Assembly (NCBI GenBank): GCA_030390025.1
Contig: CM059431.1
Location: 129,272,001 to 129,336,000 of the forward strand
Origin: Squalus acanthias
Taxonomy: Eukaryota
DNA: 64,000 nt
Direction: 5' to 3'
Shown: positions 2,731 to 64,000 of the stretch, one piece after another
How positions within the stretch are numbered: the first letter of the stretch is position 1
Layout of the letters: each line of letters opens with the position of its first letter
The notes under the pieces: model-generated
Told to the model about the DNA's origin: nothing
The model's input: only the letters and a program-made list of their open reading frames with translations
Databases searched by the model: none
Position numbers and translations under genes: made by a program

Positions 2731-2768
2731 GGCCCGTAATTTCCAATAGGAGGCTTCCTGCGTGCGGA
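2731..2768 (-). mobile_element. Terminal fragment of the MITE family at 18322
   Basis: GGCCCGTAATTTCCAATAGGAGGCTTCCTGCGTGCGGA resembles the reverse complement of the right end of the 18322-19023 MITE. Confidence 0.55.
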
Positions 2769-4345
2769 TGGAAGAGCCAGAGAGAGTAACAAAGGTAATT
2801 GGGCATCAGTGACTAAGGTGACATCAGGGAAAAATAGAAAAAAGGCAAAGCTAAAGGCACTATATCTGAATGCACGAAGCATTCGCAACAAAATAGATGA
2901 ATTAATAGCGCAGATAGAAATTAATAGGTTTGATCTAATAGTCATTATGAAGACCTGGTTGCAAAGTGACCAAGGTTGGGAACTAAATATTCCAGAATAC
3001 TTAACTTTTAGAAGAGATAGGTGAAATGGAAAAGGAGGAGGGGTAGCCCTGATAATAAAGGATGGGATAAAGACAGTTGAGAGAAAGGATCTTAGCTCAG
3101 AAAATCACGAAGTAGAATCAGTTTGGGTGGAGCTAAGAAACAGCAAGAGGCAGAAAACATTGGTGGGATTTGTTTATAGGCCCCCAAACAGTAGTTGTAA
3201 TGTAGGGCAGCATATAAATCAGGAAATTAGAGGAGCATGTAACAAGGGTAATACAGTAATCATGGGGGACTTGAATCTACATATAGACTGGGCAAACCAA
3301 ATTTGCAGTAATAGTGTGGAGGACGAGTTCATGGAATGTATTCAAGATAGTTTTCTAGATCAGTATGTTGAGGAACCAACTAGGGAACAGGCTATTTTAG
3401 ATCTAGTATTGTACAACGAGAAAGGTTTAATTAATAACCTTGTAGTAAAGGGGCCTTTAGGGAAGAGTGACCATAACATGATAGAATTTTATATTGAGTT
3501 TGAAAGTGATTTAGTTTAGTCCAAAACTAGGGTCTTAAATCTAAATAAAGCAAACTACGTAGGTATGAGGGGCGAGTTGGCTATGGTAGATTGGGAAACT
3601 ACATTAAAAGATATGATGGTAGACAATCAATGGCTAGCATTTACAACATATATACATTCATTTGAGGCACAAAAAACCCAAAGGAAAAGTGGTCCAATCG
3701 TGGCTAACAAGAGAAGTTAAAGATAGCATTAGATCAAAGGAAGAGGCTTGTAATGTTGCCAAAAAGAGTAGTAAGCCTGAGGATTGGGAGGATTTTAGAA
3801 TTCAGCAAAGGAGGACCAAGAAATTGATAAGGAAAGAGAAAAAAGAATGAGAGTAAATTAACAAGAGACATAGGGAGAGAAATTCAGTTGGTTAGCGCCT
3901 CCCATTAGCTCCTGGCGGGGGCGCTAATGGGGTGTTAATGAAGTAGCGCCCGGGGCGAGGTGAATCCAGCACAACATGCCAAATTCAGTCGCCCATTAGC
4001 ACCGCCACTAACAGTTAACGGCTGGAGCTTTAGCGCCAGGCTGATCGTGATGTGAGCGCCCGATCTGCCAAATTGATTATCGCCCCCTGCCTTAGCACCT
4101 CGTCCCGACAACGACAGGAAGAGGAGGCGTGAAGCAGGCAGATGGCGGCTCCAGCGGCGCTATTTAAAGAGATCAGTCGCAGCTGTCAGGTTGGTGCTGT
4201 TTCACTGCTTCCTTGTCAGTTTGCGATTGTGCAAGAGTTTAATTCAGTCATTTAAAGGTTCTTTAGTATCAGGAATGTTGTGGCTACGAAAAAATTGTTA
4301 CATTTATTCTGACAAAATTTCAAAGTGCTACACATCATTATATTA

Positions 4346-5506
4346 ATGGGGGCTGTACTGGCAGTCAACCTCACCCTCCAGGATCTACTGTGGAGGGAGC
4401 GAGAAAGATTGCAAGATGTGGCCAGAGGGAGGAGGAGGGCCATCAGGGCTCTCAACAGGAGGCCTTACCCTCCAAGGGTATTCCGAGAGCACTTCTCCTA
4501 CCTCCAATTAAGCGAGGAGCATTGCATTAGGAGGCTCCACTTCACCAAGGATGTGGTCACCGAACTCTGCCACCTTCTGCAACCAGACCTCGAGCCTCAG
4601 ATCAGGTCAACTACGGCTCTCTCAGTGGCGGTCAAGGTCACCGTCGCCCTCAATTTCTTCACCAGCAATTCTTTCCAGTCTGCAACAGGAGATATAGTGA
4701 ACATCTCGCAGTTCGCCGTCCATCGCTGCATCCAGGAGGTCACAGAGGCTCTGTACAGCAGGAGAAGGGATTACATTTCCTTCCCCATCACCAGAGAGAA
4801 GCAGGACAAACGTACATGTGGCTTCGCCAGGATAGCGGGTTTCCCCATGGTGCAGGGCTCCATTGACTGCTCGCACGTGGCTTTGCAGGCACCGCATAAC
4901 AATTCTGAGGTCTTCCGTAACCGCAAAGACTACCACTCACTTCATGTGCAGTTGGTGTGCGACCACACACAGCGAATCCTCAATATGAATTGCCGGCTAT
5001 CCTGGCAGCAGCCACGATGCCTTCATCTTGCGCCAGACCGGTGAGCCAGCACAATTCAAGCCGTCACATCAAGCTCACGGTCGGAGCCAAGGGCTATCAA
5101 CTTTCCACCTGGCTCATGACTCCCCTCCGCAACCCCAGCATTCCTGCTCAGCACTCATATAATGAGAGCCATGCTGCCACCAGGAACATAATCGAGCAGA
5201 ACATCAGGGTGCTCAAGCAACGGTTCCGCTGACTTTGACCGCTCTGGAGGAACGCTCCAGTACCCGCTGGAGTGGGTGTCCCATTCCATTGTAGTCTGCA
5301 CAATGCTCAACAACTTGGCCATCATGAGGGCCCAGCCCTTGCCACCAGGGATTGTGGGACCACCTCAGGAGGAGGAAGAGGGAGAGGAGGAGGAGATCGT
5401 GGACGAGGATGTGGAGGAGGAACAGGAGCGAGGGAGGAGTCCGCCACTCAATCTGCCTTCTGGAAGGGCGATCCGTGACCGCCTCATCAGACTGCGGTTC
5501 CAATAA
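4346..5506 (+). pseudogene. Harbinger DDE transposase (HARBI1-like family), frameshifted
   Basis: ORFs 4325-5044, 4957-5232, 5276-5506: GFPMVQGSIDCSHV, NRKDYHSLHVQLVCD, GAKGY (D lost), YNESHAATRNIIEQ, acidic C-terminal tract. Confidence 0.92.
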
Positions 5507-5750
5507 ATTAAACTTCAGATCCCCGTTGCTCACCACATCCCCATCATTCCATCCCTGTCACAGGCCATTTCACAGCACAAAGCTGAAATGAGAGACACCA
5601 CAAAATCATCCAAAGTAAATTAATAAATTTATCAATAATCAGTCAACACATATTTACAACAACAATATTAGCTGTTCACCCTTGTGCAATCCCTTAGTGC
5701 CTCTCGTTACTGTGCCTTTGCCTACTCTAGTGCTCCTACGAAGTGTTGGC

Positions 5751-7555
5751 TTAGTGGCTGCAGCACGGTGGGTGGAAGGCTGCTGAGACTTCAGATGGCC
5801 TTGCAGGACGCCCTCGACCAGCTCTGGGCCTGGAAGGCCCGGCTGTAGACTGCACCACCTCAGCATGGGCAGCAGCAGTCTGGGCTGGCTGGATAACAGG
5901 CAGCGACAAGGGCAATGGCGGAGTGCCAGTGGTGGGAGCAGGAATGCTGTCATCCTGAGAGAAGACAGCAGTTTCCTGCTCCACTGACCCACTGACAGTC
6001 CCCCGGGGCAGCAGCTCAGCATCACTAGGAATCTGTTGCAGCACAGATTGCTGGCCTGCTGCGACACCGTGAAAGCCCCGGTGGATGGTAGTCGACCCAT
6101 CCACGATGGCAGCCCTCAGAGCTTGCATGGCATCAAGCTGAGACAGCAAGAGAGCAGTCTGAGAATCGATGGCACAAAGCATAGACTGCATTACTGCACT
6201 AAGACGTTGCAGGGCTTCCGCCTGTGCTGCAATGGAAGCTGTGACATCGCCCATCACACGCAGCATCAGGTCTGGGTTGCTACGGTCTCTCTGGGAGCCC
6301 ACCATCTGTTGCAGACTGCTAATGATGGGCTCCATGGTGTACGCAGAGCTCTGTGCAATGTTGAAGGTGGACTCCTCCACGCTCCTTACCATTGCCGAGA
6401 GTCTGTCAGGCACCCTTGCCATTGCATCTATCATCTCCGTGTGCATGCCCATCACCCTTCTTCTAAAGGCCTCCCCATCGAGGTCCTCATCTGAGTCCTG
6501 TGCAGCAGAGCTCGCGTGCAAACTCGTCCTCCAGGGAGCTGGCTCCCGAGCTACCCTTTGCCCCTGGCCTTGCTGCAGCCTGCTCGTCCCCAGTGCCTCA
6601 CCTTGTGCAGATTGCACTACTATACTAGCCTCTAAAGAGCATGTAGTGCCAGTATCTTAGTTGGTGCCTGCGGGTGAGACATGCAGTGACGCGGTGTGTT
6701 CTTCGTCCTCCTCTTCTCCGGCCTCGCTCTCAATGTTGCCCTCAGGGACAGGCTGCTCAGGTGCTTGCTCATTATCTGCAAGCATAAAGGCACAAGAGTC
6801 GGTTTAAGGTGAGGGGAGGGGGGCAGGAAGGGAAAAATGCATGCATACACCATGATCAGCTGGAAAGTGTGAAAGGCTTGAGGGGGAAGTGGGATGTGAG
6901 AAGAAGGAGTAGGGATGAACATACCAATGTTGTCCCCAAGGGGGCCAACGTCTCTGGTGGCCACGGCGCCCACCACCTGGCGCTCAATAATCTCCAGCAC
7001 TCTATTATCCAGCGCAGATAGTGTTTGGGTGTCGGCTTGTCACCCGCCTGTGTGCTCCTTCTCCCTCCTGTTGTCAGCCGCTTTGGCCTGCTAGAGAAAT
7101 GTGTGAGTGAGTGTGGAGCAATGTGTTTGGGTGATGTGCCTGCCATAGTTGAGTAGCTGTCATTGTGTGCAAGGTGTGAGATGTGGGTGTGAGTGTTGGT
7201 AGGTAGAGATTGTTGGTGGGTGAGTGCTTGGGGGATGTGGTGCTTTGGCCAGTGTGTGCAGACTGTGGTTCAGACGGTGGTATGTAGCATTTGTTAAAGC
7301 ATTGACTCACGCTGACCACCCGAGTGAGGTCGTTAACTTTCTTCCTGCACTGTGTGTGGGTCCTGGGCACCACAATGCTGCCTGAGACATGCTGGGCAAC
7401 CTCCATCCACATGGCATGGAAGACTTGCAGCGAGGGTCTCCTGCCACTTGCCGGTAGAGCACAGCCCTCCATCTCTCCACAGCGAACATCCACTCCTCCA
7501 ATGCTCGGTCCAAAAATCTGCGGGCTCTCTCCCTGGGGCATGGATCTGCCATCAT
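5751..7555 (-). pseudogene. Harbinger Myb/SANT-like DNA-binding protein, 3 exons (~7555-7311, 7087-6925, 6775-5751)
   Basis: MADPCPRERARRFLDRALE...TQCRKKVNDL; donors GTGAGT and GTATGT with CAG acceptors; frameshift in exon 1 and stop in exon 2. Confidence 0.85.
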
Positions 7556-8548
7556 GAAACCTGCTTGAGTCGTCTGACTCCTTGGGCTTGGCCTGTTCCT
7601 GCTTGCTGACACAAGTTCACTGCCAGCAATGCTGAGAATGAGGTTCTACAGCATCAATGAACCTCCCCTTTAAGAACTGGAAAGAGCCTGTGACAATGAT
7701 GACTTGCCATTAGATTGCATCTGATATTGGTTTGCGCTTTGAGTGTAACGCCACTGAGCTAAGCCGTTAGCGCTTGATTTAGCGCTCCAATCTTTTCTTT
7801 GAGCGATGACACTGAATTTTGCATGCAGCGAGATTCATTAGCGCCTGGCACTAAATCTCAAATTTTTCCAAATTTAGCGCCCATTCCTGGGCTATAATGA
7901 ATTTCACCCCCATAAAAACAGATTGTAAACGTTTCTATAGGTATGTAAATCGGAAGAGATTACTGAAAGTAAACTTGGGCCCATTAAAGGCAGAGACAGG
8001 AGAAATTATAATGGGCAATAAGGAAATGGCAGAGACATTAAACAAATACTTTGTATCTGTCTTCCCAGTAGAAGACAAAACAATATTCCAGAAATAATGG
8101 GGAACCAAGGGTTTAGAAAGAATGAGGAACTTAAAGAAATCAGTTTAAGTAAAGACATAGTACTGGAGAAATTAATGGGACTAAGTGGCGACAAATCCCC
8201 AGGACCTGATGACCTGCATCCTAGGGTTTTAAAAGGGGTAACTGCAGAGATAGTGGATACATTGGTATTAATCTTCTAGAATTCCCTAGATTCTAGAACA
8301 GTCCCCAAGGATTGGTTGGTAACAAACATAACCCCGTTATTTAGGAAAGGAGAAAGAGAAAAAACAGGAAACTACAGGCCAGTTAGCCTGACATCAGTAG
8401 TAGGCAAAATGCTAGAATCTATTATTAGGGATGTGGTAACAGGACACTTATAAAATCGTAATTTGATTAGGCAGAGTCAACATGGTTTTATGAAAGGGAA
8501 ATCGTGTTTGACAATTCTGTTAGAGTTTTTTGAAGATGTAACTAATAG

Positions 8549-18321: not shown

Positions 18322-19023
18322 GGGCCGTATATTCCGATCCCTATGGGTGTGTACGCGCTGTGTGCTGAAAACCGGCATTTCCGATCTGCCAAGAATGCTC
18401 TTGACAGATCGGACGCCTGCCCTAGAGAAGGGCCTCTGCGGGCGAATAGTTCCGCTTTCTGGAGAACCTCCGCCCGAAGAAAACCCTTAGAAATCTTACG
18501 CCTGGTAAAAGCAGGAGTAAGGCCTGCTTTTACCAGCATAAGTCAAAAAAAGTAAAAGAAAATGTTTTCACTCATTTATCATTTAAAAATACTATAAAAG
18601 AGGTAAGTTTATTTTTAGCCCTGTAAAAAACTTTAATTATTTTTTTCAAAAAAATAAATTTTTGTTTAAAATATTTAATTTATTGTAATTTCAACTCATT
18701 TTAAAAATGTGATTTTAAAAAAAAATTTATTTAATGTTTTACAGTGTTTATGGGATGCTCTCCATTCATATATTTGACAGTTCTATCTGTCAAGTGTATG
18801 AAGGGAAATTCCCTTCTCCTATTGGCTCCCCATGGCCCACGTGATCCCAGGGACACTTGCGAACTGCATGCGCCTCTGGGATACGTGGGCCCTGCATGTT
18901 TCGAGTTGGAGAGGCCCAGGAGCGGAAGTATACGCACCTCGGGAGCCCTCAGGTAAGTCCGTAGATTTTTTCCAGATCGGAGGCCTCCGCATGCAGGAAG
19001 CCTCCGATCGGAAAATACGGCCC
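18322..19023. mobile_element. MITE (Harbinger-like ends) with promoter-motif cassette
   Basis: 18-bp TIR GGGCCGTATATTCCGATC / GATCGGAAAATACGGCCC; flanks AAT/ATT; AT-rich core; interior related to 33339 and 61257. Confidence 0.85.
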
Positions 19024-21882: not shown

Positions 21883-22085
21883 CCCCTGTTGCAGAATCAA
21901 AGGAACCAGTGGCTTAAAAAGTCAGGGCTGTGGTGACTATGAGAGCCATTGGCATTGCATGCCCCCACGGTCCAGCAAGCAGCAGGTTCCGTTGCAGGAC
22001 GTTCCAGAGGTCTGCATGAGCCTGCCTGAAGAAGCACAGCCTCCTCCTGCACTGCTCCTCAGTTAGGTCCAGGAAGGTAAGTCTT
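21883..22085 (-). mobile_element. Harbinger transposase N-terminal fragment
   Basis: Closely similar to 26879-27081 (minus strand LTFLDLTEEQ..RLRFSRQ). Confidence 0.75.
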
Positions 22086-33057: not shown

Positions 33058-34545
33058 TTGCATAGGATTACATAGGATATATGGCACAGAAACAGGCCAT
33101 TCGGTCCAACCAGTCCATGCCGAAATTTATGCTCCACTCGAGCCTCCTCCCGTCTTTCCTCATCTAAATCTATCAGCATAACCCTCTATTCCCTTCTCCC
33201 TCATAGGCTTATCTAACCACCCTTAAATGTATCTATAGTATTCGCTTCAACCAGTCCCTGTGGTAGCGAGTTCCACATTCTCACCACTCTCTGGGTAAAG
33301 AAGTTTCTTCTGAATTCCCTATTTGATTTCTTGGTAATGGCCCGAAAATTAGACCTAATACGGGAGATTACGCACTGTGTACTCTCGCGTATTAGGTCTC
33401 GAAGTGCTGGTTTCCTGCATGCACTGCGCATGCACGGGAAACCGGCACTTCGGGTATTGCGAAGGGGGCGGTTCCTAAGTGAACCGCGTGCGCACTACAG
33501 GTTGCGCGCACGCAACACACTTAGTTTTTTTTTCAGGTTTGAACGCGCAGGTAAGTGTTGAAGATTTTACACATGAAAAAAGCAGGCGTAAGACCCCCTT
33601 TTAACAAGGTAAGTAGTTAATTAAGTATTATTTTAAAATTTTTTCAACAGGTTTATCTTTTTTAGAGACTTTAAAGAAAGGCAAGTTTAGTTTTATAACT
33701 TTTAAAAATAATTTAAATTTTTCAAAAATTTAAATTTTTGTTTAAAGTGGTTAATTTATTTAACTATAGTTATTTTATTAATGTGATGGCTTTTCTTTTT
33801 AAATTTAATTGAGGTTTAGCTGTTCTTTTGGGGGCTTGTTGTATTCATAGTTTTGACAGCTCTTCCTGTCAAAACTATGAATGAAAGATGGTGTGCTGCC
33901 ATTGGCTCTAACTGGCCCACGTGATCCCAGAGGTCGCATCGAACTAATTGCACCTCTGGGACACGCACACACTGCACGCCGGCACCAGGGAGAGGCCCAG
34001 GAACTGAAGTTCATGTGGGCCAAAACCATAAAGGCAGGCGCGGAGTGCGATATCGCAGGGGATCCTTACCCCCGCGGCAACCATCGAAGTCCAATTTCTG
34101 GGCCAATATCTTATATTGATATCCTCTAGTTATGCTCTTTCCCACAAGTGAAAACATACTCTCTATATCTACTCTATCAAACCCTTTCATAATTTTATAG
34201 ATCTCTATTAGGTCACCCCTCAGCCTTTTCTTTTCAAGAGAAAAGAGACCCAGCCTGCTCATCCTTTCCTGATAGGTATACCCTCGCATTTCTGGTATCA
34301 TCCTTGTAAATCTTCTCTGCACCCGCTCCAGTGCCTCTATATCCTTTTTATAATATGGCGACCAGAATTGTACGTAGTAATCCAAGTGTGGTCTAACCAA
34401 GGTTCGATACAAGTTTAGCACAACTTCACTACTTTTCAATTCTATCCCTCTAGAAATAAACCTTAGTGCTTGGTTTGCTTTTTTTATGGCCTTGTTAACC
34501 TGTGTCGCTACTTTTAGTGATTTGTGTATTTGTACTCCAAGATCC
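33058..34545 (-). mobile_element. CR1 3' fragment interrupted by a MITE
   Basis: ORF 34011-34580 EKDLGV...LVRPHLDY...GDLIEIYK; (CATAGGAT) tail. Confidence 0.88.
33339..34104. mobile_element. MITE with promoter-motif cassette (copy 2)
   Basis: TIR GGCCCGAAAATT / AATTTCTGGGCC; TSD AAT; inserted in CR1; closely similar to 61257. Confidence 0.9.
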
Positions 34546-42070: not shown

Positions 42071-42479
42071 CCCTCCAAGCTGCGGGGCTGCGCGCACTGA
42101 TCCCGAGCTCGCACGCAGTTGAATTGAAATGCCGCGCAAAGAACTGGACAGGTTCTGGAGCGGGGGAGGGCCCAATACACAATGGCCCCGGGAATCCAGA
42201 CAGACTCGTTTGTGAGTCATGCAACCTCAGAGCCAATCCCAATTGCATCTCTTGAAGTTTGTGTTCCGATGGTCGATGGGTTGCTGTGTAATGCCGAGAG
42301 GGGTTTGGTTTTTTCACTTGAACTTTGACCTTTCAGCTGGATAGCGGGAGAATCCCCCGTGCTCTGATTATTTGCCTTTGCAGCCTTCTGTGTCTGCGCT
42401 TAGTATCCAGTTGGGCCACGCTTTCGTCGGCTCCATGCAGAGGTCAGGGGCTCTGTTGGTGGCCGGTGGGGGGAAGATC

Positions 42480-43164
42480 GAGAAAGAGACTGGAGAGAGA
42501 GAGAGAGAGACGGGGGGAGAGAGAGGGGGACTGCGGAAGAGAGCGGGACTGGGGAGAGAGAGAGAGACAGGGAGAGAGAGAGAGACTGGGGGAGAGAGAG
42601 AGAGAGAGAGACTGGGGGGGAGAGAGGGACTGGGGGAGAGAGACTGGGGGAGAGAGAGACGGGGGGAGAGAGAGGGACTGGGGGAGAGAGAGGGACTGGG
42701 GGAGAGAAAGAGAAAAATGGGGGGGAGAGAGAGACGGGGAGAGAGAGGGACTGGGGGGAGAGAGACTGGGGAGAGAGAGAGAGACTGGGTAGAGAGAAAG
42801 AGATGGGAGAGAGAGAAAGAGAGACGGAGGAGGGAGAGAGAGAGAGAGACGGGGAGAGAGAGGGACTGGGGAGAGAGAGAAACTGGGGTAGCGAGAGAGA
42901 AAGACTGGGGAGAGAGAGAGAGTGACGGGTAGAGAGAGAGAGAGAGACGGAGAGAGAGAGAAAGAGAGATGGAGAGAGAGAGAGAGATGGGGGCGAGAGC
43001 GGGTCTGGGGGAGAGAGAGAGAGCCTGGGTGAGAGAGAGAGAGAGACGATGGGAGAGAGAAGGACTGAGGGAGAGAGAGAGGGACGGGAGGAAAAAGAGA
43101 GAATGGGGAGAGAGAGAGAGAAAGACTGGGAGAGAGAGAGACTGTGGGGAGAGAGAGAGACTGG

Positions 43165-43196
<32 letters not shown>

Positions 43197-43671
43197 TGGG
43201 GAGAGAGAGAGAGAAGAGAGAAACTGGGGGAAAGACTGAGGGCTGGATTTTGAATGACCCGTGGAGTCGGGTTTGGAGGCATGTGGGGGGTTAAATTTGC
43301 GGGGTCGGGTCCCTCCACGCAATTTTGACAAAATTAGTTGCGGGGTTCCCGACTCCGTCCCGCCTCCAAGAGGCGGGAGAGGCCATTAAAGCCCTTAACA
43401 AGTCTTAAATTGGCTCTGTAATGCCATTTTGAAATGTTTTAGCTAGTTTAACCCTTTTTTGACGTGAAGTACGCCTGATGTGAAACACTCCAGTGAAACC
43501 TGGCGGGAGCACAAGTGGATAGCTGACTATCGGCTGCAGGTCCACTATTACAACTGAGATGTGATGAAGGTGGTAGTATTAGGTCTGAAAGTCGCCTCTG
43601 ATGCTGCTGCTTTGAATGTCTTCAGAGACTGCATGGCCTTTGCTGTGAGAGGACTTGGATGCAAAAAATTC

Positions 43672-43713
<42 letters not shown>

Positions 43714-44225
43714 CAGCAAAAGCCAGGCAGGTCCTCTCTCACCAACAGCCAGGCAGTCTCTGAGACCAGGCAGTCAGTCTCTGACCTGCAATGCAGCAGC
43801 AATGATGACATCATCAGAGGCGACTTTCAGACTGAAAACACTAATTAGTTCATGGGTTCCCACATGCTGGAACTCAATTGCCCAATTAAGTGAAAATTGC
43901 ATCATTCTCCCACATTAATCTGGAGTCGGGGGGAACACGAAATGCGGATGACACAACCCCAACCCGACCCCAAGACAAAATCCAGCCCTGAGAGAGAGAC
44001 TGGGGGAGAGAGAGACTGGGGGAGAGAGAGAGAGAGAGAGAGAAAGACTGGGGAGGAGAGTGAGAGAGACTGGGACAGAGAGAGACTGGGGGAGAGATAG
44101 GGATAGTGAGCGATTATAGCGAGAGGGACAGAGAGAGAGACAAGGACAGAGAGATGTAGAGAGAGCAAAACAGAGGGAGAGAGGTACAGAGAGAGAGAGA
44201 GAGACAGCAAAAGAGGGAGAGAGAG
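42480..44225. repeat. (GA)n/GACTGGGGG polypurine minisatellite, split by a MITE
   Basis: 42480-43236 and 43989-44225 are almost entirely purine on +. Confidence 0.95.
43240..43988. mobile_element. Harbinger-type MITE (749 bp)
   Basis: Perfect TIR GGGCTGGATTTT/AAAATCCAGCCC; TSD TGA (43237-43239, 43989-43991). Confidence 0.92.
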
Positions 44226-45559
44226 AGTGGTGATGGTCCAGACATGTGTAGTCTGTTCCCGGGGACTGAGCAGTGGCCGCACTTTTGCACAGCACATGTA
44301 CAATGGCTGCTGGAAGGAGGCTAAAGCAAACAAGTTTTAGGCCCACGGTGAAACAAAAATGAGAATTCTTCTTTAAAAAATTCAGAAAATTGTTTAAAGT
44401 CGGAAAAAAATACAGGAAAGTGATGTTGAATGTCCCGCAGTAAGTTCCAGTTAAATTTTGCCAGGTGTTATCCCCTTTTTGAAAGAGTTTATCAAGGTTA
44501 TTTAAATCATGTTGTGAGAGAGGGGTAAAAGTTTGTGCCCCTGTTTGTACCTCAGAGTCTGAGAGACAGAGGGAACGGCAGCAGAAAAAGAGGAAACAAT
44601 TTCGCCAAAACTGATCCCAACTCATCGCCAAGGCTGGGGAGAGATAACCTCACCACCTTCTTTGGAAGTTTAACCACTTTCTTATTTGAGCTCCGTTTGG
44701 AATTAGAGTTTATTTAATTATTTTTTTGTTGTATGTTTACCGAGAGCGTTGAAGAGGGAAAGAGAAACTTGGAGCAACTTCTTCTGTCAAAGCTGCAACG
44801 AGTCTTGAAAGAATTTAAAGATTTTTAATGAACTTTTCACAAAAAATGAGTGTTGAAAACACTTTTTTACCCCCTAAGTTTCGAATATGATTTTGGAAGA
44901 AACAGAAACAAAAATCAATTTTCCCCTCATCTAAACAAGTTTCAACCAGGTCTTGAAGTCCCAAAGCTTTTAAAAAGGGTCTGAAATACTTAAAACGTCT
45001 TAAAATTGAAATTTCTCAATATTTGATTTTGACATGTTACATGGGGCCGGGGGTGGGAGTTGCTGGTTCAAGAAGACAACGTTTATTAATGGAAGTGATT
45101 GAAGTTGGAAATACGTAATACCTGTTTTTGTTCAATTCTTTTTAATACTGTGAACTAAAGAACTACAGTACTTTATATTTGTTGGTTGTCTAGTTGCATT
45201 GTGATTAATATTCTAATTACGTATCTGGACGTACAGCACGTCCCGCCATAGGAAAGCTGCTGCTCCTGCTGCTTGTGCAGCCATTGCCATAGTGACATGA
45301 GGGATGGGCTAATACGTTGAAAACTTTAAAATTAATACAAATTGCACGAATAGATACGCCTCTTTCAGCTCACCTTGGGCTTTTGGATTGTTTGTCGATG
45401 CATAACCGTGTAACTGAGTGACATTTCTGAAGTGTTAATACATTATTATGCAGTTCTTTTATATCCCAATCATTTCTGACAAGTAATTTTTTTAAATAGA
45501 GTTTGTAGATGATGAACTAAAAGCTTTTAATTAACTCTACCGTAAACAAACTTGCAGAA

Positions 45560-47352: not shown

Positions 47353-50300
47353 CCTAAACCAATATGTTGAGGAACCAACTAGAGGGGAGGCCATCCTGGA
47401 CTGGGTGTTGTGTAATGAGGAAGGACTAATCAGCAATCTTGTGGTGCGAGGCCCCTTGGGGAAGAGTGACCATAGTATGGTGGAGTTCTACATTAGGATG
47501 GAGAAGGAAACAGTTAATTCAGAGACCATGGTCCAGAACTTAAATAAAGGGCAACTTTGAGGGTATGAGGCGTGAATTGGCGAGGTTAGATTGGCAAGCG
47601 ATATTTAAAGGGTTATCAGTGGAAGGGCAATGGCAGACATTTAGAGATCGCATGGATGAACTACAGCAATTGCACATCCCTGTCTGGCGTAAAAATAAAA
47701 AAGGGAAGGTGGCTCAACCATGGCTAACAAGGGAAATCAGGGATAGTATTAAAAGCAAGGAAGTGGCAAACAAATTGGCCAGAAGTAGCAGCAAACCCGG
47801 GGACTGGGAGAACTTTAAAACTCAGCAGAGGAGGACGAAGGGTTTGATTAGGGCAGGGAAAATAAAATATGAAAGGAAGCTTGCGGAGAACATTAAAACG
47901 GACTGCAAATGCTTCTATAAATATGTAAAAAGAAAGAGGTTAGTAAAAACAAACGTAGGTCCCCTGCAGTCAGAAACAGGGGAAGTCATAATGGGGAACA
48001 AAGAAATGGCAGATCAATTGAACAAGTACTTTGGTTCGGTGTTTACTGTGGAGGACACAAACAACCTTCCGGAAATAAAAGAGATCAAAGAATCTGGTAA
48101 GAGGGAGGAGCTGAGGGAAATCCTTATCAGTCGGGAAAAGGTGTTGGAGAAATTGATGGGACTGAAGGCTGATAAATCCCCAGGGCCTGATGGTCTGCAT
48201 CCCAGAGTACTTAAGGAGGTGGCCTTGGAAATAGTGGATGCATTGACGATCATTTTCCAACATTCCTTAGACTCTGGATCAGTTCCGAAGGAGTGGAGGG
48301 TGGCTAATGTAACCCCTCTTTTTAAAAAAGGAGGGAGGGAGAAAGCAGGGAATTATAGACCGGTCAGCCTGACATCGGTGGTGGGTAAAATGATGGAATC
48401 AATTATTAAAGATGTCATAACAGACCATTTGGAAAGTGGCGACATGATAGGTCCAAGTCAGCATGGATTTGTTGTAAGGGTTTTGACCCGTGTGGCTCTG
48501 TGCTCAGCCTGGGTGCTAGTGCGAGGTTAGGCCTTGTTGCCTGTTCTGGTCTCCAGCCAGCCTGGTAGCACTAGACACCTGTGAGTGGTTCGACCCACTC
48601 GCCTTACGGTTCTGACACTGGACTTAGATGCGAGAGCAATAATGCAGAGAAAACTCAGGTAGACCCAGTTGAATAGTGCGAAATGGAAAATCTTTATTGC
48701 ATATTATTCAAGATTACGAAATACATGTCATAAGCACAGATTAATGACAGTACAATCTTACACGCAGTTATGTAGCTAATTTTAGGGAAATGAGGAGCGC
48801 ACGACACATCGTAAAAGGGGGCACACATTACAGTTATCCTTAAAACTTAAACTCTCCCCTATCAATACCTGCCCGAAACTAGATTTGTAGGATCGAGACT
48901 CATGCTCACCACTCGTGATAACTCGGAGAATTCCGAAACTCTGCTCGGATGTTTTTCCTGCAGCACCTGACCACCCATGTGTTGATCAGGGGTCTCTGTA
49001 CCCCACTTGTTTACTCGTTTCTGCTCCGGCTAGCAGGCTGGACCGTCTGCTGTCATGAAGATCTGTGTTGTCCTCGGAGTTCCGACACGACTCAAAAAAT
49101 AGTCTTCCTGTGCCCTCGCCCCGATGCAATAAAATTCGAAGAATGGTCTTCCTGTGCCCTCACGCCAGTTTGTAAAACTCAAAGAATAGTCTTCCTGGGC
49201 AAGGAAAGTGTGTATTCGACCTACAGGCGCGGTCGGGGCTTACTGACCGTGGCGATACGTATGGTCGTCTTCTTCTCTTCTCATCTCATCTCATCTCATC
49301 TCATCTCATCTCATCTCGGGCCTTCGGTTCCAACACCGTTTACCGACTTCTCGGGATGGTGTGCCCGTTTCAAGGCTTCACAGCCCAGTTCCACACAGAT
49401 CTTCGCGGCAAGCCACGAGGTTGATCCTGGCGGATCAGAAAGTTCAAAGTCTTCTAGCAAGTCGAGCAGCAAGAGTCAGGATCCAAGAGTCAAGATGCAG
49501 ATGCAAGAGTCAAGAGAGAGATGGACGGTTGTACCTTACAGTTATAGTGCTGTAATTCCTCTTTTCCCGCCCAATCTTAATGTCTTTTCTTTTGTCAGGG
49601 TTTTGGCGCCCAAACTTCTTGTATAGGGTGATCTCCGTTTAATGGGTTTCGGTGATACTTGTAACTGCCTGAGTACCCGTTAATACTTCTCCCATTGTGT
49701 AACCGGTCAGTATTCTCCCTGGAGGGGTTTTGGGGCTTCCAAATGTTTCTGTAACTACCCGCAAACGGCTCTGTCATCGTAGAGTCGTGGGGATTTTGCA
49801 TATTAATGTCTTTGGATGGGTTCTTGATCGCTCGGTACAATAGCCCTTATTCGCACCTGGGAGACCGATTCCAGTATTTATGTGTAAAATGCAAACCCAT
49901 TATGTCTTGTGATTTATCTCAAATGTGCTGAGTCTTGTCCAATCTCGCACAAATGTTTATTGGAACGCCATCTTGTCTGCTTATCGAAAAGTCTAGAATG
50001 TTCTGCCACGAGGCGTGGCGGCCATTTTACAGGCTGCTTGTGTCCACTTTGAAAACCTGACAGCATTCTGCTGAAATAAAGCTGTTTGTACGAAACTATG
50101 TGTCTCCTCCTTATTTATAAAATCGCGATAATATTGCGAATTCTACATTGTGAAAGGGAAATCATGCTTGACAAATCTTCTGGAATTTTTTGAGGATGTT
50201 TCCAATAGGGTGGACGGGGGGGGAACCAGTAGATGTGGTGTATTTGGACTTTCGGAAGGCCTTCGACAAGGTCCCACACAAGAGATTGGTGTTCAAAGTT

Positions 50301-54207: not shown

Positions 54208-54943
54208 GGGGAGAAATTTAGTATAGCCCCGTTTGGGGCACTAAAACTGTAAAAGTTGAAAAATTAACGCTGGGCGCTAATCATTCTTGCCTCCCGCGAA
54301 ATTCAGTTTCAGCGCTCCGAGAGGGAAGTGGAGCAATAAATCAAGCGCTTTTCTTAGGGCGCTAAAGTGTGTGAGAGAGGCAGTAGCGGCAGAGCAGTGC
54401 AGTGCAGTGCTCCTTCCCTCGCTTAAAGGGAAAGGCCAATGATGGTTTGCAACATTCTTCTTCTTAGTTCTGTGGGGCCAGGGGACCTGCGCGACTTCCA
54501 TTACAGCCCCAATCACTCTCAGAGAGTGGAGGGCTTAGGCATCACGCAGCAATGAGGCTTCAAAAACTTTCAGCAGGCACCAGACTGGTGCAAAGAATAA
54601 AGTTTGGCCTCTCTGGCCACCACTGCCTTTAATTATCACTCCCCAAGCGGCCAGCCGAGGTGACAACGCCTCCTGTTGCTGCTGTTGTTGACGCCCGGCG
54701 ATGCAGCAGGGGGCGGGAGCGAATTTCACATCCGGAGAGGTAACTAGGTGTTGCGCACTTGATGACGGCACGATCTACAGGGCGCTAGAGACCGAGGCGG
54801 TAAGTGTTAGCGCCAGCGCAAAACCACCAGGGAAGTTCGCGGGCGTCGCTGAATTCGCCGCGCCCAGTCGGTAACCCCTAGCGCCCCGTTACCGCCACCC
54901 GCAGGCGTTAACGGGAGGCACAAAGCAGCCGAATTTCTAGCCC
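54208..54943. mobile_element. Harbinger-type MITE related to the 3873/38005 ends
   Basis: GGGAGAAATTT / GAATTTCTAGCCC; TSD ATG; many TAGCGCC/GGCGCTA motifs. Confidence 0.8.
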
Positions 54944-55732: not shown

Positions 55733-58700
55733 GACATGACTCCAGGATGGTATGTTGCCTCCCTGGTGCCAGGGTCAAGGATGTCACTGAATGGCTGCAG
55801 GGCATTCTGAAGGGGGAGGGCGAACAGTCAGAGGTCGTGGTTCACATTGGTACCAACGACATAGGTAGAAAGAGGGCTGAGGTCCTGCAACAAGAATTTA
55901 GGGAGCTAGGTAGCAGATTAAAAAGCAGGACCTCAAAGGTTGTAATCTCTGGATTACTCCCGGTGCCACGTGTTAGTGAGTATAGGAATAGGAGGATAGA
56001 GCAGATGAATGTGTGACTGAAGAGTTGGTGCAGGAGGGAGGGCTTTAGTTTCCTGGATCATTGGGTCTGTTTCTGGGGAAGGTGGGACCTGTACAAGTCG
56101 GACAGGTTGCACCTGAACCGGAAAAGGATGAACATCCTTGCGGGGAGGTTTGCTAGTGCTGTTGGAGGGGGGTGTAAACTAACTTGGCAGGGGAATGGGA
56201 TACGGAGTGGAGCTACAGTAGGGGGTGATGCACAGCCAAATATAGAGGAAAAAACAAGTCAGTCTGGAAGGCAGAGCAAATATGTAACGGCACAAGGGAG
56301 TATGGCAAGGCTGTGTGACATTTATTTTAATGCAAGGAGTCTTACGAGTAAGGCAGATGAATTGAAGGTGTTGATGAAAACATGGGAGTATGATATTGTT
56401 GCTATCACAGAGACATGCTTGAGGGAGGGGCAGGACTGGCAGCTCAATATTCCGGGGTATAGAATCTTCAGGCGAGACAGAGAGGGGTGTAAAAGAGGAG
56501 GGGGTGTTGCAATATTAATCAAGGAGTCAATTACTGCAGTAAGGAGGGATGATATGGGTAGAACTTAAAAACAAAAAGGGGGCAAGCACTTTGCTGGGAG
56601 TGTACTATAGGCCCCCAAACAGTCAGGGGGAGATAGAGGAACAGACATGTAGGCAAATCTCAGAGAAGTGTAGAAATAATATGGTAACAATAGTAGGGTA
56701 TTTCAACTTCCCCAATATTAACTGGGATAGTCAGAGTGTGAAAGGCTTAGAGGGTGCGGAATTCTTAAAGTGCATCCAGGAGAGCTTTTTGAGCCAGCAT
56801 GTAGAAAGTCCTACAAGAGAGGGGGCGGTACTGGACCTAATTCTAGGGAATGTAGCCGGGCAAGTAGTAGAAGTGTCAGTAGGAGAGCATTTTGGTAACA
56901 GTGACCATAATTCGGTGAGATTTAAGGTAGTCATGGAAAAGGACAAAGATGGACCGGAAATAAAGGCTCTAATTGGGGGAAGGCTGATTTTAGTATGATA
57001 AGGCAGGATCTGGGCAAAGTGGACTGGGATCAGCTACTTGTAGAAAAATCCACATCAGAGCAGTGGGAGTCATTCAGAAAGGAAATAGAGAGAGTACAAT
57101 GCCAACATGTTCCCGTAAAGGTCAAGGGGGGGACCAACAAGTCCAGGGAACCCTGGATGTCAAGGGATATACAAGAATGGATTAGGAAAAAAAGGGAGGC
57201 TTTTGGCAGTTACAAAGGACTAAAAACAGTGGCAGCCCCAGAGGAGTATAGAAAGTGCAGGGGGGTACTTAAAAAAGAAATTAGGAGAGCGAAGAGGGGG
57301 CATGAAAAAACACTGGCAGGCAAAATAAAGGAAAATCCCAAGGTGTTTCATAAGTATATTAAGGCCAAAAGGATAACCAGGGAAAGATTAGGGCCTATTA
57401 GGGACCAAAGCGGCAATCTGTGTGTAGAGCCGGAAGATGTAGGTGAGGTTTTAAATGAATATTTTGCATCTGTGTTCACTATGGAGAAGGACGATGTAGG
57501 CATAGAAATCAAGCAGGGGGATTGTGATATACTTGAACAAATTAGCATTGAGAGGGAGGAGGTACTAGCGGTTTTCGCGGGCTTAAAAGTGAATAAATCC
57601 CCAGGCCCAGACGAGATGTATCCCAGGCTGCTGTGTGAGGCAAGGGAGGAGATTGCAGGGGCTCTGAAACAAATTTTCAGAACCTCTCTGGACACAGGGG
57701 AGGTGCCAGAGGACTGGAGGACAGCTAACATAGTATCATTATTCAAGAAGGGTAGTAGGGATAAACCAGTGAATTACAGGCCAGTGAGCCTAACATCAGT
57801 GGTAGGGAAATTATTGGAAAAAATTCTGAGGGACAGAATTAGTCTCCACTTGGAGAGGCAAGGATTAATCAAGGATAGTCAGCATGGCTTTGTCAGGGGG
57901 AGATCATGTCTAACCAATTTGATTGAATTTTTCGAGGGGGTGACTAGGTGTGTGGATGAGAGTAGTGCAGTTGATGTAGTCTACATGAACTTCAGTAAGG
58001 CTTTTGACAAAGTCCCGCATGGGAGACTGGTCAAGAAGGTAAGACCCCATGGGATCCAGGGCAATTTGGCACATTGGATACAAAATTGGCTTAGTGGCAG
58101 GAGGCAGAGGGTGATGGTCGAAGGTTGTTTTTGTGACTGGAAGCCTGTGTCCAGTGGTGTACTGCAGGGATCAGTGCTGGGTCCCTTGCTGTTTGTAGTG
58201 TACATTAATGATATAGATATGAATGTAGGAGATATGTTCAGTAAGTTTGCAGATGGTACGAAAATTGGTGGAGTGGTAAATAGTGAGGAGGGAAGCCTCA
58301 GGCTATAGGACGATATAGACGGGTTGGTCAGATGGGCAGAACAGTGACAAATGGAATTTAACCCTGAAAAGTGTGAGGTGATGCATTTTGGGAGGACTAA
58401 CAAGGCAAAGGAATACACAATGAATGGTAGGACCCTAGGAAGGACAAAGGATCAGAGGGACCTTGTTGTGCATGTACATAGATCCCTGAAGGCAGCAGGA
58501 CAGGTAGATAAGGTTGTTAAGAAGGCATATGGGATACTTGCCTTCATTAGCCGAGGCATAGAATATAAGAGCAGGGAGTTTATGATGGAGCTGTACAAAA
58601 CGTTAGTTAGGCCACAGCTGGAATACTGTGTGCAGTTCTGGTCGCCACACTATAGGAAGGATGTGATTGCATTGGAGATGGTGCAGAGGAGATTCACCAG

Positions 58701-59167
58701 GATGTTAGCTGGGCTGGAGCATTTCAGCTATGAAGAGAGACTGGACAGGCTGGGGTTGTTTTCCTTGGAGCAGAGAAGGCTGAGGGGGGACCTGATTGAG
58801 GTGTACAAAATTATGAGGGGCATAGATAGGGTAGATAGAAAGGAACTTTTCCGCTTAGTAGAGGGGTCAATAACCAGGGGGCATAGTTTCAAGGTAAGGG
58901 GCAGGAGGTTTAGAGGGGATTTGAGGAAAAACTTTTTCACCCAGAGGGTGGTTGGAATCTGGAACTCACTGCCTGAAAGAGTGGTAGAGGCAGGAACCCT
59001 CACAACATTCAAGAAGCATTCAGATGAGCATTTGAAACGCCATAGCATACAAGGCTACGGACCAAGTGCTGGAAAATGGGATTAGAATAGATAGGGCTTG
59101 ATTGCCGGTGCAGTCACGATGGGCCGAAGGGCCTCTTTCTGTGCTGTATAACTCTATGACTCTATAA
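55733..59167 (+). mobile_element. CR1 LINE: ORF1 esterase C-terminus, near-complete ORF2, 3' tail
   Basis: VHIGTND; YFNARS; ORFs 56549-56998, 56995-58308, 58351-59085; ACTCTATG tail. Confidence 0.95.
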
Positions 59168-59251
59168 CAGTTTCCAAGCTGTGTAACAAAAACTATCCTA
59201 ACATCATATTACCAAAATTTTCTATCATCATGTTATGTCTGAATCTCACAA

Positions 59252-59530
59252 TCATAGAAATTTACAGCACAGAAGGAGGCCATTCGGCCCATCATGTCTG
59301 TGCCGGCTGAAAAAGAGCTGTCCAGCCTAATCCCACTTTCCAGCTCTTGGTCTGTAGCCCTGTAGGTTACGGCACTTGAAGTGCATATCCAAGTACTTTA
59401 TAAATGTGATGAGGGTTTCTGCCTCTACCACCCTTTCAGGCAGTGAGTTCCAGACCCCAACCACCCTCCGAGTGAAAGAAGTTCTCCTGAACTCCCCTCA
59501 AATCCTTCTACCAATTACTTTAAATCTATG
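59252..59530 (-). mobile_element. CR1 3' fragment
   Basis: GGCCATTCGGCCCATC stem; WNSLPERVVEA in reverse. Confidence 0.82.
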
Positions 59531-59749
59531 AATATTTTGCTGCAACTCTGGAGGCAAGTTGGTTACCTTCCTTCCCATGATTTTTTCAGATTGATCTTGT
59601 CACAAAGCACAGATTGATGAGGCTAATATCCTCATGCCCATGTTACTTTATCATATCATTTCTATGTTTCAGCACTCTTCCTGGTTTATTTTCATCATTG
59701 AAGATGAGCTCAGAAGCCTTACTAGATTCCATCAAACCTCTAATATTTG

Positions 59750-60877
59750 CATAGTCATAGAGTCATAGAGTTATACAGCACAGAAAGAGGACCTTCGGCC
59801 CATCGTGTCTGCGCTGGCCATCAAGCCCTGTCTATTCTAATCCCATTTTCCAGCACTTGGTCCGTAGCCTTGTATGCTATGGCATTTCAAGTGCTCATCT
59901 AAATGCTTCTTGAATGTTGTGAGGGTTCCTGCCTCTACCACCCTTTCAGGCAGTGAGTTCCAGATTCCAACCACCATCTGGGTGAAAAAAAAAATCCTCA
60001 AATCCCCTCTAAACCTCCTGCCCCTTACCTTGAAACTATGCCCCCTGGTTATTGACCCCTCTACTAAGGGGAAAAGTTCCTTTCTATCTGCCCTATCTAT
60101 GCCCCTCATAATTTTGTACACCTCAATCAGGTCCCCCCTCAGCCTTCTCTGCTCCAAGGAAAACAACCCCAGCCTGTCCAGTCTCTCTTCATAGCTGAAA
60201 CGCTCCAGCCCAGGTTAGATCCTGGTGAATCTCCTCTGCACCCTCTCCAATGCAATCACATCCTTCCTATAGTGTGGTGACCAGAACTGCACACAGTATT
60301 CCAGCTGTGGCCTAACTAGCGTTTTGTACAGCTCCATCATAACCTCCCTGCTCTTATATTCTATGCCTCGGCTAATGAAGGCAAGTATCCCATATGCCTT
60401 TTTAACCACCTTATCTACCTTTTCTGCTGCCTTCAGGGATCTATGTACATGTACACCAAGGTCTTTCTGATCCTCTGTCCTTCCTAGGGTCCTACCATTC
60501 ATTGTGTATTCCCTTTCCTTGTTAGTCCTCGCAAAATGCATCACCTCACACTTTTCAGGGTTAAATTCCATTTGCCACTGTTCTGCCCATCTGACCAACC
60601 CATCTATATCGACCTGTAGCCTGAGGCTTCCCTCCTCGCTATTTACCACTCCACCAATTTTCGTGACATCTGCGAACTTACTGATCATACCTCCTACATT
60701 CATATCTAAATCATTAATGTACACTACAAACAGCAAGGGACCCAGCACTGATCCCTGCGGTACACCACTGGACACAGGCTTCCAGTCACAAAAACAACCT
60801 TCGACCATCACCCTCTGCCTCCTGCCGCTAAGCCAATTTTGTATCCAATGTGCCAAATTGCCCTGGATCCCATGGAT
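59750..60877 (-). mobile_element. CR1 3' fragment closely matching 58048-59167
   Basis: ORFs 60215-60883 and 59837-60166; (CATAGAGT)n tail. Confidence 0.93.
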
Positions 60878-61256
60878 TAACAAAAAGGCATTTGGATTCT
60901 GTAGTTCACATGATCAGGGAGGAATCTGCTAATATGTAGAGTGTAGGTTTACATTTGAATTTTCCTCTGAAGAATATCTTTGAGAAACCCATGATTTGCA
61001 CCTACAGGCTTTTTGCTGTAAAATACTTACAAAGGATAATAAGCCAGGTGTTTAGACTCTGCATTCTTTGCATCATTTTCTACCTAATGGATAGAGAGTT
61101 CATACAAAAGCAATTGAAAATCATTAACTGAATAATTATACTTTCAGAATGGCTGCTGTAAGACACACAACTGTGACCCAGAGTTGACATTCTTTCTGAT
61201 CTCCCTTATTTCTTTGTGCAGATGAAATGCATGCAAATCAATGGCAAAAAATTATA

Positions 61257-62021
61257 GGCCCAAAAATTCGGCCGTTCTCGGGTGAGTACTCAGTGCGTAC
61301 TCACCCGTATTCATTCCCGAAGTGCCGGTTTCCTGCATGCACTGCGCATGCGCGGGAAACCAGCACTTCCGGTATGGCGAAGGGGGCGGTTCCTAGGTGA
61401 ACCGCGTGCGCACTAGAGGCTGCGCGCACGCAGCACACTTAGTTTTTTTTTCAGGTTTCAACGCGAGGGAAAGTATTGAAGAAACTACGCTAGTAAAAAG
61501 GAGGCGTAAGACCCCTTTTGAACAAGGTAAGTAGTTAATTAAGTATAATTTAAAAAATTTTTCAACAGGTTTATCTTTTTTAGAGACTTTAAAGAAAGGT
61601 AAGTTTATTTTTATAACTTTTAAAAAGTATTTTAATTGTTTCAAAAATTTAAATTTTTGTTTAAAGTGGTTAATTTATTTAACTATAGTTATTTTATTAA
61701 TGTGATGGGTTTTAAAAAAAATTTATTTGAGGTTTAGCTGTTCTTTTGGGGCCGATTTCAATTCAAAGATTTGACAGGTCTCCTGTCAAATCTATGAATG
61801 AAAGATGGTCTGCTGCCATTGGCTCTCCATGGCCCACGTGATCCCACGGGTCGCATCGCACTAACTGCGCCCCTGGAACACGCAAGCACTGCGCGCCGGC
61901 TCTTGGGAGAGGCCCAGGACCCGAAGTTCCTGTGGGCCCAAAACACAACGGCAGGCGCGGTGGGTAAGATCGCGCGCGATCCTTACCCCCGCGGCAAGCC
62001 TCCGAATCGAATTTCTAGGCC
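61257..62021. mobile_element. MITE with promoter-motif cassette (copy 3)
   Basis: TIR GGCCCAAAAATTCG / CGAATTTCTAGGCC; TSD ATA. Confidence 0.9.
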
Positions 62022-62304
62022 ATAGTTTTTTTTTAAATTCTTATCAACAGCTAGCATTGATGTGAACTTTATTCCTGTATTCAAGACGAAAGGCACAGAA
62101 AACGAATGTGTAAGCAAGCCACATAATTTGGCCTGTGAGCATCAAACTAAAGAAAAAAGGTGTGAAATTACTAAGTACACAGAGTCTCACACTCTCAAGG
62201 AGATTAGAAACAATAGAGACAATTTTAACTGTGGCTGCCTGGAAGAATAGGCCAGTAGCAGCTCGAGGATGTCATCGGCTCCCTTACTGCCCTCTTTATG
62301 TTGG

Positions 62305-62806: not shown

Positions 62807-64000
62807 TGTAAAGTTTCGCAATTATCGCGATTCAAAATAATAAGAGAGAAGCAGATTCGTTTGATCAGTTTTATTAAACGAAATGCTGTCCTGATAATAA
62901 AGGACACAGAAGCCTGTAAAATGGCCGCCGAGCATCGTGGCAGAAGCTTCCAGAAACACAGTGGGCAGACAAGATGGCGTCGAATATACATTTAGTATAA
63001 GATTGGATCATACTCGGTAAACACTGATAAAGACAGGATGCAACCCGTTTGCATTTGGAACAATAGCAAAGATATAAGTGCTGGAATCGTTTTCCTATGC
63101 ACAGAAAGGATCATTGTACTGGGCAACCGAAGGCCCATCCAGACACATCAATACACAAATAACCCCCCGGCTCTACAATGAGAGAGACATTGACGGGTGA
63201 TTAAGCAAGTATTGGGGGGGCCCCAAAACCAGTCAGGGAGACGATTCATACACATCCTGGCTGGTCCAACAATGGGGAAAACATTAACGGATAGTTGGCC
63301 AGTCTCAGGTGCTACCGAAACCCGTTAAGGAAGATAAACGCCCCATGCTGGGAGTTTTGAGCGCCAATATTACACAAAGCACAAACATTAAGATTTGAGC
63401 GGGCGATAAGCGGACACATCACTATAATTATAGAGAACAAATGTCCATCGGTCTCTTATTCTCTTATCTCTCGGCGGACCCTTGCTGAAGCTCTTCCTTA
63501 GGGCTGGACTTTGTGTTTCTCTGGACTTTGTTGACTCTTGACTCTTAGCCGTACTGGTCGGTTATGCGAGTGTTGGGTGGAGCTCAATCGGAACGAGCCA
63601 CCCCGACAAGGGCAAGTAACAGGGTACACCATCCCGAGTGTCGGTAAACGGTGTCTGGACCCGGAGGCCCGAAGAGACGAGACGAGACGAGAAGAAGAGG
63701 AGAAGAATCCACGTGCCGCCACGGTCAGTAAACCCCGACCGCGCCCTAAAATATAAATAAAGAACTTTTCTTTGAGTTCTACCGACAACCTGTATCGAGC
63801 ACAGGAAGACTCTTCTTTGAACTGTGTCTGAGGTCCGTCGAGTTCTTCATGACAACAGGGAGTCTGGCCTGCTTTTCGCAGCAGCGAAAGTAAACAAGTG
63901 GGGTGCAGAGACCCTTCCAAACACGTGACAGTCAGGCGCTGCAGCGAAACGAGCCGAGTGCCTCACTTTAAAAATCTCCGAAGTAACACGAGTGGTGAGC
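62807..64000 (+). mobile_element. LTR related to 48473-50147, opposite orientation, runs off the window
   Basis: Starts TGTAAAGTTTCGCAATTATCGCGATT, matching the reverse complement of the 50147 end; shared blocks AAAATGGCCGCC, CAAGATGGCG, CCACGGTCAGTAA, GAGTGGTGAGC. Confidence 0.82.

Follow-up and report, generated by a model that had tools for sequence, protein, structure and literature searches.

The 64,000 bp of Squalus acanthias DNA analyzed here, referred to as the window, contain three related MITE copies in which motifs typical of housekeeping promoters lie close to consensus splice donors. The question raised by this locus is whether the family constitutes a portable promoter with a first exon, as proposed in the initial annotation, or whether its promoter- and splice-like signals have a more ordinary origin.

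All three elements described previously were recovered by BLAST and are flanked by exact or near-exact 3-bp target-site duplications (TSDs; Table 1). The first copy (c1) can be aligned with the second (c2) and the third (c3) in the core and the inner right arm only, at 69-73% identity, its outer arms being unalignable. In a 14-bp scan, the terminal inverted repeats (TIRs) of c2 matched at 11 of 14 bases and those of c3 at 12; for c1, a match of 23 nt at 96% was found, flank included. The additional end that had been noticed at 2731 exists as well and is a reversed c1-type right end (87% over 2731-2768). It was considered as the start of an autonomous parent and rejected, since no more than 40 bp remain of it and the transposase located at 4313 is part of a separate element that has ends of its own (3873-7911). 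The reported composition, CpG-rich arms around an AT-rich core, is also correct. The arms show an observed/expected CpG ratio of 0.63-1.22, compared to 0.41 for the window, while the cores have a GC content of 15-17% and zero CpG. No open reading frame of 150 amino acids was detected within c1 or c3, frames overlapping the MITE copies gave no Pfam match, and Rfam yielded 0 matches across the 64-kb window. With 702-766 bp, the elements exceed the 100-500 bp given for MITEs in PMC2836001, and the stricter label for a family of this size is 'short non-autonomous element'.

Table 1. Positions of the MITE copies, their predicted signals and the comparison element within the window
Feature	Position	Strand	Remarks
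MITE copy 1 (c1)	18322..19023	+	sister subfamily; flanks AAT/ATT, one mismatch
MITE copy 2 (c2)	33339..34104	+	TSD AAT/AAT; 85.7% identity to c3, full length
MITE copy 3 (c3)	61257..62021	+	765 bp, non-coding; BLAST and depth step at edges
c3 left target-site duplication ATA	61254..61256	+	
c3 right target-site duplication ATA	62022..62024	+	
c3 left terminal inverted repeat	61257..61270	+	12/14 bases pair with the right one
c3 right terminal inverted repeat	62008..62021	-	
Subterminal hairpin A	61279..61307	.	
Hairpin B	61312..61376	.	holds NRF1-type and ETS-type sites
NRF1-type site	61343-61353		inner stem of hairpin B
ETS-type site, c3 only	61364-61372		right arm of hairpin B
GC box	61382..61389	+	in c2 and c3, absent from c1
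Hairpin C	61393..61442	.	followed by acceptor-like T-run
Candidate 100-nt mini-intron	61469..61568	+	acceptor-like end at 61568; predicted from sequence signals
Consensus donor, c3	61525..61532	+	common to c2 (33607)
c3 AT-rich core	61528..61745	.	17% GC, no CpG, partly palindromic
Consensus donor, c3	61597..61604	+	common to c1 (18601); c2 has GC for GT
TTGACAG/CTGTCAA hairpin	61761..61799	.	in 3/3 copies; motif also at other Harbinger ends of the window
E-box, 12 bp, CCAAT	61818..61840	-	order inward from right end; invariant in 3/3 copies
Right subterminal hairpin H	61956..61993	.	
c1-type right-end remnant, ~40 bp	2731..2771	-	directly adjoins CR1-type LINE
Two-gene Harbinger H1	3873..7911	+	DDE_Tnp_4 transposase on +, Myb/SANT on -, TSD ATA/ATA

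The family is a non-autonomous PIF/Harbinger (PHIS) element, namely a long MITE. This identity follows from the 3-bp TSD, the extended target preference and ends resembling those of two-gene Harbingers. The designation 'MITE family' was right and is sharpened by the TSDs, the TIRs and the target flanks. Diagnostic of PIF/Harbinger elements are a target duplication of 3 bp, a preference for an extended target and two proteins encoded by the element (PMC2836001, PMC9179366, PMC4482050), and the TIRs of PHIS elements are described as short, their first base being mostly G or A (PMC4482050). A TIR of the type G-G-x-x-x-x-(x)-AAATT, recognized by inspection and without a statistic, is common to the MITE, H1 and other Harbingers of the window. 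In a scan for paired ends, five further elements out of 14 candidate pairs, H1 among them, were accepted as real carriers of the terminal pattern. Across 16 half-sites of eight elements, three of which are the MITEs, the base at position -1 to the duplication is a pyrimidine in 14 cases and position -4 is an A in 10. The TSDs seen (ATA, AAT) match no PHIS subgroup label cleanly (PIF/Harbinger proper, Pangu ANT, NuwaI CWG). Other Harbingers of the window revealed Pfam matches to DDE_Tnp_4 and Myb_DNA-bind_4/5, the Myb match in H1 falling under the curated cut-off (E 0.0054). An autonomous parent sharing the MITE arms was not found in the 64-kb window, and the arms gave only short local matches to other Harbinger ends, five of about 200 comparisons reaching z values of 4.5-5.8. 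H1 is a comparison element and a possible type of mobilizer, not the parent of the MITE. A literature search gave no description of this family, and a name may exist in Dfam or Repbase, which lay outside the search.

The window is eukaryotic DNA made up largely of repeats, and the Pfam matches of its frames were to LINE proteins (RVT_1, Exo_endo_phos, GDSL-like ORF1) besides the Harbinger proteins. Three more short Harbinger-type elements, belonging to other families, are located at 22759-23603, 21165-21321 and 54208-54942. The first of them is arranged like a Myb-gene end, with a GC box, CCAAT, CRE-like sites, a TTGACAG hairpin and a donor. In a nested stack (2772-11945), a CR1-type LINE is interrupted by H1 (3873-7911), a short interspersed repeat (~8580-9025) and a Myb-only Harbinger derivative (~9950-11650). 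CR1-type LINE pieces also form an inverted repeat (58047-60875; 1122-nt arms, 95%, 585-nt spacer), which ends about 380 bp before c3. Another inverted repeat of 103 nt (25300-25402 / 25771-25873; 96%, 368-nt spacer) lies inside an apparent decayed Harbinger Myb region. At 48473-50147, a LINE contains a 1.7-kb insert that starts with TG and ends with CA. A stretch near the window end (62815-64000) is 67-76% related to this insert in the opposite orientation, and the two are possibly solo long terminal repeats. Finally, a 203-bp stretch occurs twice (21883-22085 and 26879-27081, 91% identity), an acceptor-like end and an exact consensus donor forming the boundaries of either copy. None of the three frames is open across it, and it may represent a non-coding exon that was duplicated, or an exon of a transposon.

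To estimate the abundance of the MITE, contigs of sequencing runs were considered. At 80% likeness, 25,376 contigs of the DNA run X1 align to the region of c3 (61140-62140). The summed contig depth, which is not a copy number, amounts to 5.7-8.2 in the flanks and 49,000-3,000,000 (median 1.4 million) inside c3 with a step at both ends, giving an inside/flank ratio of about 2 x 10^5. A second measure is the local density of three copies per 64 kb, set against about 2,000 million letters of contigs. By these two crude estimates, the copy number is roughly of the order of 10^5 and, at 0.75 kb per copy, the family may cover a few percent of the genome. X16, a run bearing the label of another organism, covers the MITE without its flanks, hence the family is present beyond this species. 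One X1 contig contains a joint from 62022 to 61253, i.e. from the right end to the left end, with a few A/T letters between; this represents either a head-to-tail copy pair somewhere in the genome or an excised circle.

The four motif strings attributed to c3 are all in place. The combination ATTGG-N12-CACGTG occurs three times in the window, once per copy. Its spacing is indeed the same in all three copies, as had been pointed out, but it is one inherited stretch and not three independent cases. In 1000 segment-wise dinucleotide shuffles, in which each arm and the core were kept separate, the five of five motif classes present in c3 (1.2 expected) were reached by 0 of 1000, and four of five in c2 and three of five in c1 gave P values of 0.003 and 0.018, which are optimistic since the motif list was picked after viewing the sequence. 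Taken singly, motifs of c3 are not significant (CCAAT P 0.80, GC box P 0.15, E-box P 0.10). The initial observation was thus partly confirmed. The motifs are real and exceed the shuffles, but a single co-linear cassette shared by the copies is not supported: the GC box is present in two copies, the NRF1-type site is exact in c3 only (one mismatch in c2, where it was hit by CpG decay), and the ETS column reads CACTTCGGG in c2 and CATTTCCGA in c1. Among the named motifs, conservation across c1, c2 and c3 is limited to CCAAT, the E-box and the TGACAG/CTGTCA hairpin. Out of 52 CpG sites in c2 and c3, 27 are common and 10 appear as TG/CA in the other copy; CpG decay is in progress but limited. No exact match to the shared CCAAT/E-box pattern turned up in collections of metagenomes, viruses and prokaryotes, which agrees with its being part of a vertebrate repeat.

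The donor sequence AGGTAAGT occurs twice per copy, compared to 0.01-0.03 expected from 1000 shuffles. The donors listed in the initial annotation (18953, 33551, 33609, 61526) are real consensus donors but mostly non-homologous. Only 33609 and 61527, which is the correct reading for 61526, correspond to each other, donor 18953 (feature start 18951) is private to c1, and donors at 18603 and 61599 had been overlooked. c2 retains the donor of the predicted mini-intron (33551), which carries a mutation in c3; at 61470, 99.8% of the family depth is T, the donor base. In the whole window, AGGTAAGT was found 15 times on the plus strand and twice on the minus strand. Six of the 15 lie in the three same-oriented MITEs, and the remaining nine versus two are unexplained.

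All signals of the MITE face inward. On the plus strand, the left arm of c2 and c3 presents the NRF1-type site at +88, the GC box at +128, an acceptor-like T-run, which ends at 61454 after hairpin C, and donors at +211, +269 and +341. ATTGG on the plus strand is CCAAT on the minus strand, and a reading that starts at the right end and proceeds inward meets the E-box first, then, after 12 bp, CCAAT, followed by the hairpin and the core. The succession of CCAAT, E-box, NRF1-like site, CGGAAGT and donor, which had been read as one cassette in c1, mixes two directions, CCAAT and E-box being opposite to the donors. Of the proposed promoter-plus-donor module, there remains the left arm of c2 and c3 with its co-linear NRF1-type site, GC box and donors; the CCAAT/E-box part opposes them. 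For the left arm, a portable promoter with first exon is a possible candidate reading.

In the model built on the original proposal, the transcripts of many copies would start within the left arm and be spliced from the donors to host exons, or exons would be trapped. The excess of the motif set and the donors over shuffles would fit this model, as would the co-linearity of the NRF1-type site, the GC box and up to three donors on the plus strand of c2 and c3 and the presence of the first donor in the family majority. On the other hand, the motif set varies among the copies, the CCAAT/E-box pair faces away from the donors, CpG decay has affected the NRF1-type site of c2, and it seems implausible that about 10^5 copies are all active. 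Furthermore, the Pfam scan of 106 stop-to-stop frames, covering the window except for a simple-repeat tract (~42300-44600), gave no host-gene family, and no host exon was recognized near the MITE copies. Four of 24 runs on record were compared with the region of c3, one of DNA and three guessed to be RNA, in each case as contigs, which cannot show starts, strand or level. Among the 15 joints listed (nine more exist), one derives from a guessed-RNA run. It leads from 61542 to 61654 with four letters between and GT..AA ends, hence it does not reflect splicing at any of the named donors. Of the 24 loose ends listed (540 more exist), none lies at a donor, which is no evidence either way since contigs cannot show starts, and the same applies to the depth profiles of the three guessed-RNA runs, contig data that track the DNA profile with Spearman coefficients of 0.83-0.87. 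In all, we regard a general function of the copies as promoters and first exons as quite improbable.

The arms are also rich in secondary structure. As a chain of short inverted repeats, c3 folds far better than its shuffles (z -7.3, 0 of 20 as good), and the NRF1-type and ETS-type sites lie inside hairpin B. One may thus ask whether the motifs are by-products of CpG-rich palindromes, in which case palindromic factor sites would have arisen by coincidence within subterminal inverted repeats that template switching preserves or restores. In the Harbinger3_DR study, the Myb-like protein reportedly binds subterminal palindromic repeats. The subterminal inverted repeats of the MITE are possible Myb/SANT binding sites, and binding of a Myb-like protein to element ends is described in PMC2836001 and PMC9179366. 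Between c2 and c3, four to five of 178 pairs show compensatory changes compared to 1.1 expected (P 0.006-0.027), a test that is partly circular since the hairpins were chosen from the very two copies compared. Between the two copies, transversions outnumber transitions (73 versus 34), whereas in eight other repeat pairs transitions are more frequent (563 versus 452 transversions; P 3e-6). In the AT-rich core (33611-33830 / 61529-61745), one transition stands against 14 transversions, and A/T exchanges predominate among the listed family variants from the run contigs. Compensation and transversion excess fit template-switch repair in palindromes or selection on the end structure for transposition and require no host function. 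As an account of the motifs, however, the palindromes appear very unlikely, because the GC box, the CCAAT box and the plus-strand donors lie outside the stems and have no mirror copy.

Motif conservation bears on a further explanation. It holds that the NF-Y/USF and NRF1-type sites are kept since host factors open or protect germ-line chromatin and thereby aid transposition, the sites serving the element and not host genes. A comparison of motifs with their neighbours, which had been recommended as a check, revealed that motifs are somewhat better kept: 45 of 47 motif columns of c2 and c3 are identical, compared to 612 of 717 others (P 0.049, post hoc). In the three-way alignment, the CCAAT/E-box columns are invariant (11 of 11 versus 236 of 354 others; P 0.019, post hoc) across subfamilies that are about 70% alike. 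None of the 38 variable positions listed (83 more rows exist) falls into the 47 motif bases (2.3 expected, P 0.09), and CpG retention is high. The E-box lies upstream of CCAAT, which is the orientation of human NF-Y with USF/MAX, for which -12/-11 (PMC3730095) and a spacing of 10-12 bp (PMC4889920) are given. When each right arm was shuffled 5000 times, a pair in this orientation with 10-12 bp occurred 0, 1 and 3 times, and NF-Y and USF are reported to bind closed chromatin at LTRs (PMC3730095, PMC4889920). Yet non-motif runs are just as invariant and equally long (an AT-rich 16-nt run at 61650-61665 and a 14-nt run at 61906-61919), and the conservation rests on three aligned copies. Maintenance of the sites for the sake of the element's own mobility is unlikely.

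By analogy with other Harbingers, it is most likely that the promoter- and splice-like signals are left over from the two genes of a parent transposon. We consider it probable that the family is a non-autonomous Harbinger which keeps the promoter ends and a 100-nt untranslated intron of a two-gene parent, is moved in trans and is mostly silent. The MITE arms would be the two ends of this parental element, both genes having been lost. On the left, an inward CpG-rich promoter (NRF1-type site, GC box), a 5'-untranslated exon and the 100-nt intron would have been retained, and on the right the inward E-box/CCAAT promoter of the opposite gene. Two-gene Harbingers would supply the transposase and the Myb/SANT proteins for mobilization in trans. 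The signals may persist because the family is young and because the end architecture is needed for transposition. Most copies would be silent, and cryptic promoter or donor activity may arise now and then in a few of them, as is the case for many transposons.

Other Harbinger ends of the window show a comparable layout. At the Myb ends of H1, H2, H6 and H7, an inward CCAAT is followed by a TATA-like box 56-58 bp on and then by the Myb start. The transposase ends of H1 and H7 contain a TATA-like box, a donor at +310/315 and an acceptor, all ahead of the start codon, the candidate intron of H1 being 83 nt long (4190-4272). The TTGACAG hairpin motif lies at +215 to +245 in H2, H2's second copy and H4, and at +231 to +246 in the MITE. 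In the other Harbinger ends, GGGCGG reaches 1.69/kb compared to 0.20 in non-Harbinger DNA (8-fold) and TTGACAG 1.84/kb compared to 0.07 (26-fold). Inward promoter-like motifs and donors are thus general to Harbinger ends of the window, which offers an ordinary origin for the signals of the MITE. The derivation from a two-gene parent rests on analogy of layout, because no parent was found in the window and the arms share only short matches with its longer elements. The MITE is without a clear TATA-like box after CCAAT. Moreover, it is far denser in NRF1-type sites, CACGTG and exact donors than the other Harbinger ends (GCGCAT 4 versus 0, CACGTG 3 versus 0, AGGTAAGT 2.64 versus 0.28 per kb), which counts against a mere relic. 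In the same direction, the invariant CCAAT/E-box pair within a non-coding core of about 70% identity suggests that selection on the non-coding element has continued, and the CpG ratio of 1.03 versus 0.61 could reflect methylation protection instead of youth.

A more far-reaching reading would be a vertebrate DNA transposon of about 10^5 copies in which selection acting on the element itself preserves a housekeeping-type promoter kit (NRF1-type site, GC box, NF-Y/USF pair) together with a spliceable mini-intron. Its copies would thereby stay open in germ-line chromatin and would have given rise to working promoters and first exons in the hundreds or more. This appears rather improbable to us. 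The point most worth testing is the NF-Y/USF-type pair, which is invariant across subfamilies that share only non-coding sequence. Should selection on the pair and the donors be borne out across subfamilies, the family would serve as a large natural test of two questions, namely whether host-factor sites in successful MITEs benefit the mobility of the element or its host, and to what extent DNA transposons have seeded vertebrate promoters. If the family is an ordinary Harbinger derivative, its importance lies chiefly in repeat annotation, since CpG-rich promoter-looking sequence with perfect donors everywhere can mislead promoter and gene prediction.

Among known systems, Tourist-like MITEs and other non-autonomous PHIS elements (mPing from Ping, zebrafish Harbinger3N_DR) are similar in their short TIRs, 3-bp TSD, extended target preference, lack of coding capacity, high copy number and two-gene transposase/Myb partners in the genome, as far as described in PMC2836001. 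Compared to that account, the present family is distinguished by its length of 700-770 bp, its many internal hairpins, vertebrate housekeeping-type motifs and donors. The short non-autonomous variants of Harbinger-Snek in sea kraits represent another vertebrate Harbinger expansion with solo-ORF and non-coding derivatives, and insertions in introns and regulatory regions are reported for them (PMC8437027). This likeness is one of description, and the passages considered from PMC8437027 describe no promoter/splice cassette. With regard to the motif pair, the NF-Y/USF sites of human promoters and of LTR12/MLT1 repeats share the E-box upstream of CCAAT at a short fixed distance and the location on repeats (PMC3730095, PMC4889920). 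Their carrier is different, since it is a DNA transposon here, and the agreement in spacing depends on the measuring convention of these papers. Most NF-Y/USF sites in such repeats are bound but transcriptionally inactive according to the same sources. MITE-derived promoters, on the other hand, are already established in C. elegans, where CERP2/CELE2 elements spread a fixed pair of factor motifs and provide a model for the idea pursued in the initial annotation (10.1101/2022.01.21.477252). Promoter use was demonstrated there by ATAC, ChIP, reporters and editing, while the signals of the present family are known from sequence. In addition, the inverted-repeat motifs of CERP2/CELE2 are bound by one dedicated factor, HIM-17 (10.1101/2022.01.21.477252), in contrast to the sites for general host factors found here. 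If the promoter kit of the Squalus family were indeed selected, it would be the vertebrate counterpart of CERP2/CELE2, using general pioneer factors.
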